The notes under the pieces were generated by a model that saw nothing but the letters and a program-made list of their open reading frames with translations, was not told where the DNA came from and ran no database searches. DNA of 64,000 nucleotides from an uncultured Acidobacteriota bacterium (GTDB lineage Bacteria > Acidobacteriota > Thermoanaerobaculia > Gp7-AA8): positions 1-64,000 of the forward strand of contig CAVUKB010000001.1 in NCBI GenBank assembly GCA_963741955.1, written 5' to 3'. Each line of letters opens with the position of its first letter. Within the stretch, counting starts at the first letter, position 1. Positions 59,073 to 64,000 of this stretch are shown one piece after another. Made by a program: the position numbers and the translations under genes.

Positions 59073-60650
59073 TTATCGCGGCCGCATCAGCGGGAAGAGA
59101 ATGACATCCCGGATCGACGGCGAGTCGGTCAGGATCATCGCGATGCGGTCCATCCCGATTCCCTCGCCGGCGGTGGGCGGCATGCCGTACTGCAGCGCAC
59201 GCACGTAGTCCTCGTCCATCTGGTGTGCCTCGTCGTCGCCGTGGGCGCGCTCGCCCAGCTGCTGGAGGAACCGCCGCTCCTGCTCGTCCGGGTCGTTGAG
59301 CTCCGAGAACGCGTTCGCCACTTCCATCCCGCCGATGTAGAGCTCGAACCGCTCGACATACCGCGGATCGTCCTTCCTCTGCTTCGAGAGGGGGGAGACT
59401 TCCACCGGAAAATCGGTGATGAAGGTCGGTTCGATCAGAAACTCCTCGGCGAAGCTCTCGAAGATCTCCGCGATGATCTTCCCGTCGTTCATCTCTTCGA
59501 GCGGCGGCGCTCCGGCAGTGATCGGCCCTTCCGTCGCATCGGATTTCACATGACGCGGCTCGCCGTACCTGCGCGCGAGCTCGATCAGTGACGCGCGGTT
59601 CTCCAGCGACTGCGGATCGATGGTGATCTCCTTCCGCGCGGCGAAGTGGACGATGGCCTCCTTCATGGTGAAGCGGGCGAAGGGAGGAGTGAAGTCGATC
59701 TCATTGCCGCGGAAGGTGAGCCGGGTCGAGCGATGAATCTCCATCACCAGCCCCGCCAGGAGCGACTCGGTGAGGTTCATCAGGTCGCGGTAATCCGCGT
59801 ACGACTGGTAGAACTCGAGCATGGTGAACTCGGGATTGTGCCGGACCGAGATGCCTTCGTTGCGGAAATTGCGGTTGATCTCGTAGACGCGATCGAGCCC
59901 GCCCACGATCAGCCGCTTCAGATAGAGCTCCGGCGCGATGCGGAGATAGAGGTCGATGTCGAGCGTGTTGTGATGGGTGATGAACGGCCGTGCCGCCGCA
60001 CCTCCGGCCAGCGGCTGCATCATCGGCGTTTCCACCTCGATGTATCCCCGCGCGTCGAAGAAGTTGCGGATGAAGCGGATCATCTGCGCCCGAATCTCGA
60101 ACGTCCGCTTCACGTCGTCATTGACGATCAGATCGAGGTATCTCTGCCGGTATCTCTGCTCCAGGTCGGTCAGTCCGTGCCATTTCTCGGGAAGAGGACG
60201 GAGCCCCTTCGCGAGAAATCCGAGGTTCGAGGCCTTGATCGAAAGCTCGCCCTTCCGGGTCCGGAAGACCGTTCCCTCGACGGAGATCCAGTCGCCGATG
60301 TCGAGGTTCTCGTACAGAGTCCACTCGTTTTCCGGGATCGAATCCTTCCGGCAATAGACCTGAATCCGCGCCATCCTCTCCGACAGATCGAGGAACGAGG
60401 TCTTCCCGTGGTGGCGGATGGTCATCACGCGTCCGGCGATCTTCACCTGCCGCGGATTCGCTTCGAGCACCTCTGCGGTCTGTCCCGCATGCGTCTCGAC
60501 CACCTCCGCGATGGTGGTGTCGGTCTCGGCCCTGGTAGGGTACGGGTCGAACCCGGCGTCCACGATGCGGGCGAGCTTCTCTCGCCGGATGCGAATCAGT
60601 TCGCTTTCCGGCGTTTCGGATGTCGGATCGGGTGCGTGTTCGTCGGACAC
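59073..60650 (-). CDS. lysS: Lysine--tRNA ligase (class II)
   Basis: [45 protein letters not shown]. Confidence 0.97.
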
Positions 60651-60690
60651 GAAGTCTCCTTCGGTGAATGGTGCGGACGCAGCCGCGCAG

Positions 60691-61896
60691 TCACTTCATT
60701 TTCGAGAGCGCGTCGATGGCGCGCTCGATCGTCTGGGTCGAGGTGGAAAAGGACATTCTGAGGTGACCCTCACCGTGAGGGCCGAAGACCACGCCCGGAA
60801 CGGTCGCGATGTTCGTCCGGTCGAGAAGTGTGTCGAACGCGGTCCAGGAGTCTTCGCCGAGCCGTTCCCGCACGTCGAGAAAAAGATAGATCGCTCCGGC
60901 CGGCGGGACGCAGCGGAAGCCGGCGCGAATCAGTCCGGCGACGAGAAGGTCACGCCGTTCGCGGTAGTGCTCGAGGTTCTTTTCGAGATAATCCGAGCGG
61001 TCTGCGATCGCAGCGGCCGCGGCGAACTGAGTCGGGGTGGAGACGCCGTTCACGGAATTCAGAACCAGCTTCTTGAGCGAATCCATCCAGAGATCGGAGG
61101 CGACGACGTACCCCACGCGCCATCCCGTCATGGAGTAGCTCTTGCTCAGCGTGAAGCAGGTGATGGTCCGGTCGAGCATCCCGGGTAGCGAAGCGATCGA
61201 GACGTGCCGCCCGTCGTAGATCAGGTCTTCGTACGCTTCGTCCGCGATCACGACCAGGTCGTGCTCGACGGCCGCGCGCGCGATCGACTCGAGCTGTGGG
61301 CGCGAGAGGACGTCTCCGGTGGGGTTCGAGGGCGAATTGAGATAGAGCACCCGCGTGGCGGACGTGACGTGCCGGCGGATGACTTCGGCCGGATCCTCTT
61401 CGCGGATCGCCTCCCACGGGACGAGGAGCTGCTTCGCGCCGCAGTAGTTCACCAGCGACTGGATCGGAGTCCAGTAGGGGGAGAAGAACATGACCTCGTC
61501 GCCGGAGTCGACGGCCGCCTGGAAGGCGCAGAAGAGTCCGTGCATCCCTCCTGCGACGACGATCGCGTTCTTCCGGCCGAGCGGAATGCCGTTCCGGGTC
61601 GCCACTTTCTCCTCGATCGCTTCGAGAAGCGAAGGGATTCCGGAGGAAGGGGCGTAGCGAGTCTGGTTCTCGTCGAGCGCGCGCCTCATGGCGTCCTTGA
61701 CGAGCTCGGGAGTGGGACCGAACGGCTCGCCTCCCTGGAACTGCAATACGTCGACCCCGCGGCCGCGCAGCTCGATGACCCGGTTGCGGATCTTCACGAT
61801 GTCGGAAAAACCGAGCAGGGAAGTCCGCTCGGCAAGATGACTGGTCAGTCTCTCGTCTGCCACCTGCGCTGCCTCGTTTTTCTTTTGCCGGTCCAT
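60691..61896 (-). CDS. Aspartate aminotransferase-like PLP enzyme
   Basis: [30 protein letters not shown]. Confidence 0.9.
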
Positions 61897-61941
61897 TCTT
61901 TCCTGCTCCGAAAGCGGGGCCCGATTGTAAGGGAAAGGGCG

Positions 61942-62124
61942 TGCGGGGGCGAGGGGCGAAAGGCGAGAGGCGAGGAGGTGAGGATACGCCGCCAGGTCCG
62001 ACAAGTCTGACACGTGGGACTCGTCGGACACGTCTGACGTCCGGCCTGAAGCTCCCCGGCGATATTCTTCGCCCCTCGCCCCTCGCCCCTCGCCCCTTGC
62101 CCCTTGCCCCTCGCCTCTCGCCTC
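61942..62124. repeat. Inverted heptamer arrays (GGCGAGR / YTCGCCC) enclosing nonamer repeats
   Basis: G-rich units 61942-61978, TC(C/T)GAC nonamers in the middle, C-rich units 62069-62124. Confidence 0.85.
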
Positions 62125-62126
62125 CA

Positions 62127-62155
62127 TTGACTCCGCATCCCCCGTTCTTTATGCT
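62127..62155 (+). promoter_or_regulatory. Putative sigma70 promoter for tRNA-Val pair
   Basis: TTGACT-17 nt-TATGCT. Confidence 0.7.
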
Positions 62156-62232
62156 TGGCGCCCTCCGGAAATAAGCCGGACATCGGCCGGGGTTTCCGGG
62201 AGACAGGCGGCGACGCCGCCAGCGGTTCGTTC

Positions 62233-62308
62233 AGGCGCTTAGCTCAGTTGGTAGAGCATCACCTTCACACGGTGGGGGTCAGCGGTTCGAGTCCGCTAGC
62301 GCCTACCA
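62233..62308 (+). tRNA. tRNA-Val(CAC)
   Basis: 76-nt cloverleaf, loop TTCACAC, CCA end. Confidence 0.95.
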
Positions 62309-62357
62309 CGAACCGTCAGGTCGGTGGCCCGGCGGGCGGGCCGGAAATGGAAAGAGC

Positions 62358-62434
62358 AGGCTCTTAGCTCAGTTGGTTAGAGCGCCACCTTGACACGGTG
62401 GAGGTCAGCGGTTCGAGTCCGCTAGAGCCTACCA
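62358..62434 (+). tRNA. tRNA-Val(GAC)
   Basis: 77-nt cloverleaf, loop TTGACAC, CCA end. Confidence 0.95.
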
Positions 62435-62443
62435 TTCACGACG

Positions 62444-62518
62444 ATGGCGACATTCACGAAGGACGGAGCCGGCACTCGAACGACGAGCACGCGCTCGAGT
62501 GGACATCCCTGTCGATAG
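62444..62518 (+). CDS. Putative thrS leader peptide MATFTKDGAGTRTTSTRSSGHPCR
   Basis: 24 codons, 6 Thr, ends just before a terminator that precedes thrS. Confidence 0.6.
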   Translation: MATFTKDGAGTRTTSTRSSGHPCR

Positions 62519-62545
62519 TTCGTGAAAACAGGATTGCGACGAATG

Positions 62546-62574
62546 AAGACAGGGTTTACGGCCCTGTCTTTTTT
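62546..62574 (+). terminator. Intrinsic terminator / attenuator upstream of thrS
   Basis: AAGACAGGG-loop-CCCTGTCTT-TTTT. Confidence 0.85.
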
Positions 62575-62627
62575 GTTGCTGCGACGGAATTCAGGAGCGG
62601 GCCCGGGTGGCCCGAGGAGTGAGTGAG

Positions 62628-64000
62628 ATGCAAGTACAACTGCCGGACGGTTCGGTGAAAGAGGTGCAGGAGGGAGCCACTGTCGCTGCGGTCGCCGAGT
62701 CGATCGGCAAGCGGCTGGCGAAGGACGCCCTCGCGGGGAAGATCGACGGGAAGATCGTCGACGTCTACTTTCCGGTTCCCGACCGCGCCAAGGTGGAGAT
62801 CATCACTCCGAAGAGCGAGGAGGGGCGCGACGTGATCCGGCATTCGACCGCCCACCTGATGGCGATGGCGGTGCAGGAGCTCTTCCCCGGAACTCAGGTC
62901 ACCATCGGGCCCGTGATCGAGAACGGTTTCTTCTACGACTTCGCGACCGACCGCCCTTTCACCGACGAGGATCTCCGCCGCATCGAGGAGAAGATGCAGG
63001 AGATCGTGAAGCGTGATCTCCCGATCCAGCGCGAGGAGTGGGCGCGCGACGACGCGATCGCCGAATTCGAGCGGGCGGGGGAAAAGTACAAGGCGGAGAT
63101 CATCCGCGATATCCCTCCGGGCGAGACCCTCTCGGTCTACCGGCAGGGCGAATGGAAGGATCTCTGCCGCGGGCCGCACGTTCCCTCCACCGGACGTCTC
63201 GGGGCGTTCAAGCTCCTCTCCGTCGCCGGCGCGTACTGGCGCGGTGACGAGCGGAACGCGATGCTCCAGCGGATCTACGGCACCGCCTGGGCCGATCAGA
63301 AGGAGCTCGAGGAGCATCTGAGGCGGATCGAGGAAGCGAAGGCGCGCGATCACCGCAAGCTGGGAAAGGAGCTCGGCCTCTTCACCTTCTCCCACTTCGC
63401 TCCGGCGATGCCGATCTTCCTTCCGAAAGGGGCGGTGATCTACCGGGAGCTGATGACCTTCGTCCGCGAGTACTACGATCGTGACGGCTACTCGGAGGTG
63501 GTCACTCCTCTCATCTGGGAATCGGAGATCTTCCACGTCTCGGGGCACTACGAGAACTACAAGGATTCGATGTTCTTTTCCGACATCGACGAGCGGGAGT
63601 ACGGCGTGAAGCCGATGAACTGCCCGGGGCACACCCAGATCTTCGCCCTCGAGCGCCGCTCGTACCGCGATCTCCCGATGCGGATCGCCGACTTCGCGCG
63701 CCTCCACCGCTTCGAGCGGTCGGGCGTGACCCATGGGCTCGCGCGCGTCCGTTCGTTCTCACAGGACGACGCGCATCTGTTCGTGACTCCGGAGCAGATC
63801 GAGGAAGAGATGGGGCGGGAGATCCGGCTGATCAACGAGATGTACGAAGTGTTCGGATTCGAGAACGTGAAGGTCGCGCTCTCGACCCGTCCCGAGAAGC
63901 GGCTCGGAGACGATGCGATGTGGGACCGCGCCGAGGGCGCGCTCGAGGATGCACTCGAGCGCGAGCACGTCGAGTATCACGTCAACCCGGGTGAGGGAGC
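62628..64000 (+). CDS. thrS: Threonine--tRNA ligase (runs off window)
   Basis: Manual translation: MQVQLPDGS, IRHSTAHLMA, DLCRGPH, GAYWRGD, RDHRKLG, KPMNCPGH. Confidence 0.96.
   Translation, partial: MQVQLPDGSVKEVQEGATVAAVAESIGKRLAKDALAGKIDGKIVDVYFPVPDRAKVEIITPKSEEGRDVIRHSTAHLMAMAVQELFPGTQVTIGPVIENGFFYDFATDRPFTDEDLRRIEEKMQEIVKRDLPIQREEWARDDAIAEFERAGEKYKAEIIRDIPPGETLSVYRQGEWKDLCRGPHVPSTGRLGAFKLLSVAGAYWRGDERNAMLQRIYGTAWADQKELEEHLRRIEEAKARDHRKLGKELGLFTFSHFAPAMPIFLPKGAVIYRELMTFVREYYDRDGYSEVVTPLIWESEIFHVSGHYENYKDSMFFSDIDEREYGVKPMNCPGHTQIFALERRSYRDLPMRIADFARLHRFERSGVTHGLARVRSFSQDDAHLFVTPEQIEEEMGREIRLINEMYEVFGFENVKVALSTRPEKRLGDDAMWDRAEGALEDALEREHVEYHVNPGEG

Follow-up and report, generated by a model that had tools for sequence, protein, structure and literature searches.

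Is the threonyl-tRNA synthetase (ThrRS) gene thrS of a Thermoanaerobaculia bacterium (phylum Acidobacteriota) controlled by the short, threonine-rich open reading frame (sORF) located upstream of it? The gene and its leader lie towards the 3′ end of a stretch of 64,000 nucleotides (nt), which was analysed as a whole and is referred to below as the window. The features of the leader suggest that it is a ribosome-mediated transcription attenuator reporting the supply of charged tRNA-Thr, a reading to which we assign, from sequence comparisons, a probability of roughly 0.75. Leader-peptide attenuation as a mechanism is already known; what would be new is the thrS case in Acidobacteriota. The elements of the window leader are the following.

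62444..62518, + strand: leader sORF MATFTKDGAGTRTTSTRSSGHPCR, with ATG at 62444, 24 codons followed by TAG (62516-62518), and six Thr codons
62474..62491, + strand: sensing core ACT CGA ACG ACG AGC ACG (T R T T S T), the proposed stall codons
62473..62501, + strand: hairpin P1 over the Thr core, with outer helix CACTCGA (62473-62479) / TCGAGTG (62495-62501)
62484..62488 and 62493..62497, + strand: inner helix of P1, CGAGC / GCTCG
62507..62513, + strand: region 2, CCCTGTC, within the last sORF codons, 5′ strand of the outer helix of the antiterminator
62518..62544, + strand: inner helix of the antiterminator with its loop, GTTCGT (62518-62523) pairing with ACGAAT (62539-62544)
62548..62554, + strand: region 3, GACAGGG, common to antiterminator and terminator and invariant in 32/32 leaders
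62545..62575, + strand: intrinsic terminator, a stem of 12 pairs (62545-62571) followed by a T-run
62562..62568, + strand: region 4, CCCTGTC, within the 3′ arm of the terminator, CCCTGTCTT (62562-62570)

The Thr codons of the window sORF are codons 3, 5, 11, 13, 14 and 16, so that four of the six fall within codons 11-16. The sensing core is located 15-30 nt 5′ of region 2, which takes up the third- and second-to-last sORF codons and one further base, the first of the final codon, and pairs with 62548-62554 when the segment 62505-62555 is folded. A consensus scan detected the terminator-like site (stem 62545-62571, T-run after it), and the minimum free energy (MFE) fold of the window leader holds both the hairpin at 62473-62501 and the terminator (z = -2.76; none of 200 shuffled sequences folds equally well).

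Most of these parts had been noted in a preliminary description of the locus. The 24-codon sORF with its cluster of Thr codons, the CCCTGTC/GACAGGG complementarity, the 3′ arm of the terminator and the CACTCGA/TCGAGTG hairpin over the Thr cluster are all found in the sequence where that description placed them, as checked against the list of open reading frames, and the hairpin is also present in the MFE fold. The start of thrS, given there as 62629/62630, has been corrected to the ATG at 62628, and the inner helix of the antiterminator is an addition.

Such features are infrequent in the window. Among 259 ATG-initiated sORFs of 15-35 codons on both strands, seven contain at least six Thr codons and three, the leader sORF among them, have at least four within six codons. 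The + strand of the 64 kb has three copies of CCCTGTC, two of which, 55 nt apart, are those of the leader, and a single GACAGGG. Taken by itself, the window sequence is suggestive and provides moderate evidence, and the decisive evidence is comparative.

A conserved leader with a candidate reading frame upstream of thrS

A search with a fragment of ThrS yielded 80 loci, 33 from Thermoanaerobaculia/Acidobacteriota (ThrS 60-81% identical) and 47 from other phyla. The similarity to the former assigns the window to the class Thermoanaerobaculia. One of the former (L008) has no upstream sequence, which leaves 32 assessable relatives. The same architecture is found directly upstream of thrS in 31 of these 32 Thermoanaerobaculia loci, which supports the attenuator reading; the preliminary description had expected a Thr-rich sORF in orthologous thrS leaders, and such a frame is part of this architecture. 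The order of elements is sORF, CCCTGTC at the sORF end, a 37-46 nt spacer, GACAGGG, a tight loop, CCCTGTC and a U-tract. Together with the window, 31 relatives make up the aligned set of 32 leaders. Their sORFs have an ATG start, 19-25 codons and 3-9 Thr residues, and the typical peptide is M.RTTTTGQTRTTS....PCR. The core is near-invariant around ACG CGA ACG ACG, and positions around the CGA codon are invariant or at least 90% conserved in alignment A1. The stop codon is always 9-12 nt past the first base of region 2.

The leader appears to be restricted to this group in the data searched. A fixed criterion for Thr-rich sORFs (at least four Thr in eight codons, sORF of 8-45 codons, within 450 nt) selects 31 of the 33 upstream regions, including that of the window, versus one of the 47 thrS loci from other phyla, a weak match. 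A covariance model built from the 32 leaders recognises its source leaders only, all upstream of thrS, in 527,706 bases searched, with no extra copies in the rest of the window or in the 80 loci. Upstream of a -10-like motif that precedes most leaders, the sequences of the different loci are unrelated, and therefore leader conservation does not merely reflect recent common descent.

The sORF evolves as a coding sequence. Thr accounts for 235 of the 683 leader codons (34.4%), versus 663 of 14373 codons (4.6%) in the thrS genes. The codon usage is also different: ACG makes up 168 of the 235 leader Thr codons versus 161 of the 663 in thrS, where ACC dominates. Within the first Thr cluster, codons vary synonymously (ACG, ACC, ACT, ACA). 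Region 2 is spaced from the invariant CGA codon by 21, 24, 27 or 30 nt, in all 32 leaders a multiple of three. The non-coding spacing of regions 2 and 3, by comparison, takes nine values, which leave residues of 0, 1 and 2 in 8, 17 and 7 sequences, respectively. The Arg codon between Thr codons (62477-62479 in the window) is CGA in all 32 leaders; the CGA codon and the ACG bias may tune stalling or serve RNA pairing.

Start signals follow a consistent pattern. Of the 32 aligned leaders, 22 lack a Shine-Dalgarno sequence and carry an extended -10-like motif, TGnTAnnnT, which ends 8-12 nt ahead of the ATG; this arrangement implies a leaderless or near-leaderless mRNA. Three leaders in which the motif is separated from the ATG by 22, 29 and 48 nt each carry GAGG 4-10 nt before the ATG. 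In one locus (L010, 2360-2484), the ancestral start is apparently ATA and has given way to a later ATG that follows a GAGG, seemingly a shift of the start site by which the leader stays translatable. The frame-preserving indels, the synonymous variation of Thr codons and the occurrence of Shine-Dalgarno sequences only with long 5′ leaders support the view that the sORF is a real reading frame.

A translated sORF could have other roles. It might encode a functional micro-protein, or raise thrS translation by re-initiation, the terminator being unrelated. Conservation of the peptide end (PCR) and of the core (QTRTTS) would suit a micro-protein, and leader genes near structural genes have been proposed to boost translation by re-initiation in the accessible part of one article (PMC4833913). 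Yet the pairing element CCCTGTC of the RNA falls precisely on the conserved C-terminal codons, and with 34% Thr in its roughly 21 residues the peptide has a composition typical of attenuator leaders. The sORF stop and the thrS ATG are about 100 nt apart and separated by the terminator, far over the re-initiation distances of 10-16 nt considered in PMC4833913. We consider these roles highly improbable.

Alternatively, the leader RNA might be sensed directly by ThrRS, uncharged tRNA-Thr or a small ligand, and the Thr codons might be a by-product of a conserved RNA. Conservation around the CGA codon includes third codon positions and goes beyond what peptide or codon identity needs, and masking by a ribosome leaves the fold unshifted at equilibrium (see below); both would be in keeping with an RNA sensor. 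Against it stand the frame-preserving indels in 32/32 leaders, the synonymous changes in the first Thr cluster, the fixed distance of the ATG from the -10-like motif, the association of Shine-Dalgarno sequences with long leaders, and the constant position of the stop codon relative to region 2. Neither P1 nor the antiterminator has conserved loops, and no anticodon-like or ligand-pocket motif is apparent in them. Rfam searches with cmscan at E up to 10 (window 61800-62900; L016 2300-2520) revealed no T-box and no other family match; only tRNA matches reached gathering scores. Below threshold, ar9 (19.1 bits, cutoff 45) and SorX (12.9 bits, cutoff 46.6) were reported over the window element, with similar results in L016. 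Direct sensing by the RNA is thus quite unlikely, if less so than a micro-protein or re-initiation.

Alternative pairings and the proposed switch

The segment from region 2 to region 3 folds in isolation into a two-helix hairpin in 32/32 leaders. The outer helix is (G)CCCTGTC/GACAGGG(C), and the inner helix, which begins directly after the stop codon, is of the TGATCG/CGATCA type in most relatives and is built from other complementary sequences in the rest, including the window. In the model-fitted alignment A3, 81.5% of the cells are paired, compared with 31-43% when the partners are slid. Ten pairs show double changes, a number reached by 4 of 500 shuffles; within the inner helix, both sides have changed in five of six pairs. 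For the terminator, 96.9% of the cells are paired in the 32 sequences.

The two folds also emerge from RNAalifold when no structure is supplied. The terminator is predicted from the full alignment, and the pairing of regions 2 and 3 is the consensus of an independent MAFFT alignment truncated before region 4. When individual RNAs are truncated at the same place, the antiterminator is found in the MFE structure of 31/32, and, when each is folded in isolation, the antiterminator exceeds the terminator in stability in 31/32. In the window, the 2:3 pairing is present in the MFE structure of both the truncated and the full-length leader. When 28 nt around the stop codon are masked, the terminator forms in 32/32. 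Two leaders (L012 and L031) keep GACAGGG, though the 3′ arm of their terminator no longer matches its GACA part. This retention fits selection for pairing with region 2.

A hairpin over the Thr core is found in the relatives too, with a different sequence and a shifting register. It has at least four base pairs in 30 of the 32 segments as picked, two of the 32 being mis-picked, and z < -1.64 in 20. Column-based counting of P1, which gives only 58.8% of paired cells owing to the register shifts, was abandoned in favour of per-sequence folds. P1 may act as a pause or synchronising hairpin.

From these elements, we infer a switch between two mutually exclusive folds, in which region 3 would pair either with region 2 (the antiterminator, reinforced by the inner helix) or with region 4 (the terminator). 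If Thr codons are read quickly, the ribosome would reach the last codons or the stop and would cover region 2 and one strand of the inner helix. Region 3 would then be free, the terminator would form, and thrS would not be transcribed. If charged tRNA-Thr is scarce, for want of threonine or of ThrRS, the ribosome would stall at Thr codons 15-40 nt upstream. Region 2 would be left free to pair with region 3 as the latter emerges, and RNA polymerase would read into thrS. Translation of the sORF, stalling at its Thr codons and a kinetic choice of fold are thus presumed steps.

Such a switch would be bypassed by a promoter located between the terminator and thrS. In 22 of the 32 aligned leaders, the U-tract and the thrS ATG are separated by 9-19 nt that hold only a Shine-Dalgarno sequence, so that in most relatives thrS has no space for a promoter of its own. 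The corresponding gap of the window is 50 nt long and contains a GC hairpin and GAGGAG. An independent thrS promoter downstream of 62574, which the preliminary description had named as a counter-argument, was looked for, and a sigma-70-type scan found no promoter-like site between 62575 and 62628.

Counter-evidence and the tRNA-linked copy of the window

Several results weigh against the attenuator reading. As for distribution, one assessable relative (L004) lacks the module, and another (L001) has a homologous leader with only three Thr. The window copy is the weakest member of the family (53 bits, versus 66.9-129 for the others) and has lost the first Thr cluster. A two-hexamer promoter scan finds nothing in L016, and for this reason the promoter call for the family is based on the conserved -10-like motif alone. 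Directly before the window sORF, there is no -10 motif, promoter-like site or Shine-Dalgarno sequence. As for structure, the inner hairpin of P1 in the window (-7.4 kcal/mol) is no better than those of shuffled sequences (z = -0.96), and a 1:2 pairing in fixed columns, between the Thr codons and the end of region 2, does not exceed the controls. The outer helix of the antiterminator is nearly invariant and shows conservation with little covariation, limited to two wobble-compatible changes; in 7/32 leaders, CCCTGCC introduces a C.A mismatch. The covariation that was expected across relatives comes mainly from the inner helix. Near-invariance is expected of a strand that must match two partners. 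A partner-swap test of the inner helix is only moderately significant (43/10000); a GATC core is common to most members, so that cognate partners rarely rank first in it.

Nor do full-length leaders show the switch when they are folded at equilibrium. When a 28-nt mask is placed at each Thr codon in turn, the antiterminator is the MFE structure in only 41 of 235 cases and the terminator in 194. With or without a mask on the core stall site, full-length leaders favour the terminator state by about 4 kcal/mol. A mask for a ribosome stalled at the core shifts the energy of antiterminator versus terminator by a mean of -0.42 kcal/mol (Wilcoxon p = 0.52), 18 leaders moving toward the antiterminator and 14 away from it. 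In the window, the shift goes the wrong way (-0.3 free versus +5.0 masked), as the full-length leader tends to the antiterminator when free and to the terminator when masked. Folding with and without a ribosome mask, an approach put forward in the preliminary description, hence agrees with the predicted outcome for the ribosome at the stop codon, where the terminator forms in every leader, and reveals no shift for the ribosome at Thr codons.

The equilibrium simulation of a stalled ribosome was rejected as a test of the model, since all that can be drawn from it is that a switch, if there is one, must be kinetic. The classical trp attenuator is a parallel case, its terminator also being more stable than its antiterminator. 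A kinetic choice would hinge on whether a ribosome covers region 2 when region 3 leaves the polymerase, and one consequence would be read-through, not termination, in a leader that is not translated.

The window copy needs to be weighed separately, owing to the sequences that surround it. These are listed below.

62628..64000, + strand: 5′ part of thrS, which runs off the window (Pfam TGS, tRNA_SAD and tRNA-synt_2b)
62598..62619, + strand: GC hairpin, then the thrS Shine-Dalgarno sequence GAGGAG (62614-62619), from sequence and MFE fold
62358..62434, + strand: tRNA-Val, anticodon GAC (ARAGORN; Rfam tRNA, 71.2 bits)
62233..62308, + strand: tRNA-Val, anticodon CAC (ARAGORN; Rfam tRNA, 66.3 bits)
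62127..62155, + strand: promoter-like TTGACT-17 nt-TATGCT, the probable promoter of a tRNA-Val / leader / thrS transcript

The encoded ThrS is 75-81% identical to Thermoanaerobaculia ThrS. The two tRNA-Val genes, which are absent from the preliminary description, end close to the leader, as the 3′ end of tRNA-Val(GAC) is located 10 nt before the sORF ATG. TTGACT-17-TATGCT is the sole sigma-70-like match in 61800-62900 (shuffle mean 0.1). TACCAT (62430-62435) was rejected as a -10 hexamer: it matches at 4/6 positions, has no upstream TG and overlaps the 3′ end of the tRNA. The tRNA-Val pair, followed by the leader after the second tRNA, and the promoter are shared by L017 and L021, in which both hexamers are kept and the spacer sequence differs. 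In this subclade of three, the leader ATG is found 10-30 nt past the tRNA 3′ end, with no -10-like motif or Shine-Dalgarno sequence before the sORF. The window module is probably transcribed from the tRNA-Val promoter, its leader being part of the tRNA transcript, and most simply the leader terminator also ends the tRNA operon. Processing of the tRNA 3′ end, which would generate a new 5′ end, is a possible route by which ribosomes could start on the window sORF.

The main rival explanation for the window copy arises from this arrangement. The hairpin and U-tract would be merely the terminator of the tRNA-Val operon, the sORF an untranslated relic, and thrS would be expressed by leaky read-through from the tRNA promoter. 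The lack of start signals in the 10 nt that separate the sORF from tRNA-Val(GAC), the location of the only promoter-like site upstream of the tRNAs, the lowest score in the family and the loss of the first Thr cluster are all consistent with a relic. The free full-length MFE structure, which already has the antiterminator, would give constitutive read-through. Moreover, L004, which has the same tRNA-Val pair, carries in place of the Thr leader a different, plain terminator and a repeat palindrome. However, the window retains an intact reading frame, T-R-T-T-S-T core and region 2, as well as both antiterminator helices and an undamaged terminator, and the inner helix has stayed complementary in spite of a sequence that differs from that of most relatives. 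In addition, the tRNA-linked L017 and L021 keep a leader with eight Thr, so that the tRNA context is compatible with long-term retention. We therefore regard a relic as unlikely, although it deserves more weight than the alternatives considered above. The interpretation as an attenuator is supported for the conserved family, with moderate doubt as to whether the divergent, tRNA-linked copy of the window still senses threonine.

A broader conjecture joins these observations. Processing of the tRNA 3′ end would make a near-leaderless 5′ end and would couple tRNA maturation, operon termination and attenuation; across the class, attenuation would be leaderless, with the minor codon ACG beside the invariant CGA as a tuned stall site. 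We regard this combined scheme as speculative and probably wrong in at least some part.

Other features were observed around the leader. In the tRNA-linked subclade only, a conserved GGAATTCAG/GAAATTCAG-like motif is found about 10 nt past the U-tract (62584-62614 in the window and the equivalent segments of L017 and L021), preceding the GC-rich hairpin just 5′ of the thrS Shine-Dalgarno sequence. A long imperfect inverted repeat of tandem 7-mers (a GGGGCGA-type arm and a TCGCCCC-type arm) with a central 9-mer tandem (61996-62038) extends from 61946 to 62123, between an aminotransferase gene and the tRNA promoter. The miRNA-like Rfam matches at 61946-62123 are spurious and are produced by this repeat. 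Palindromes of other short tandem units occur downstream of the terminator in L004, L005 and L030, and upstream of the promoter in L014, L020 and L053. Farther upstream of the tRNA region, within 59073-61902 of the minus strand and thus opposite to thrS, lysS (class II LysRS) is located directly downstream of the class I/II aminotransferase gene. In L016, the genes infC, rpmI and rplT come after thrS. Given this gene order, the regulated unit may be larger than thrS.

Relation to known control of synthetase genes

The textbook controls of thrS are autorepression by ThrRS through a tRNA-like operator in E. coli and the T-box, which binds uncharged tRNA, in Firmicutes. Both concern the same gene and the same signal as the leader described here, but their sensor is not the translating ribosome. 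By inspection, features of an operator of the E. coli type were not seen in P1 or in the antiterminator, the loops of which are not conserved; in the relatives, it is the terminator that forms the hairpin beside the thrS Shine-Dalgarno sequence, and its loop is short, in most cases 4 nt, and not anticodon-like.

Leader peptides rich in Thr codons and equipped with an antiterminator/terminator switch are known from enterobacteria. There, thrL controls the biosynthetic genes thrABC and also reads Ile codons (Rfam Thr_leader). Rfam has no leader match in the window or in L016, and the resemblance would therefore be one of analogy, not homology. In function, E. coli pheM-pheST is also alike, combining a short leader ORF rich in cognate codons, an intrinsic terminator and a synthetase gene under the control of charged tRNA. 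It differs in that it senses Phe and belongs to another phylum, whereas the thrS leader is leaderless or nearly so in most members. In the part of PMC1262725 that is accessible, pheM-pheST is cited as the classical case of a synthetase attenuator, and classical attenuators of leuS and trpS are predicted computationally in Streptomyces. Likewise, the available portion of PMC2965389 reports a computational prediction of a His leader upstream of hisS paralogues in Bacillus. As far as these portions go, synthetase attenuators are thus predicted outside Proteobacteria, for other amino acids and in other phyla, and not at thrS.

The closest precedent is found in Streptomyces lividans TK24. According to the accessible text of PMC8079986, a leaderless sORF, thrL, is predicted directly upstream of thrS, as in most leaders described here, and is proposed to act as a threonine-dependent attenuator. 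The same text lists leaders of alaS, trpS and leuS as well. The S. lividans thrL, from Actinobacteria, is described there as having two Thr in 18 residues, one hairpin and no U-rich tract, whereas the Acidobacteriota family features 3-9 Thr, a canonical terminator and a conserved antiterminator. Apart from this prediction, no thrS leader-peptide attenuator was found in the literature searched, although Lopatovskaya et al. 2010 (Mol Biol 44:128) may hold earlier ones. Full-text searches revealed no thrS attenuator with a Thr leader in Acidobacteriota, nor did the literature searched describe any leader-peptide attenuator for this phylum.

The class very probably sets its ThrRS level by the speed at which Thr codons are read. 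The covariance model can label about 130 otherwise blank nt upstream of thrS in these genomes, and the leaderless leader peptides would provide a clean natural test of transcription-translation coupling without a Shine-Dalgarno sequence. If the attenuator reading is true, classical attenuation would be extended to Acidobacteriota, and the leader would represent a third, class-wide solution for the regulation of thrS.

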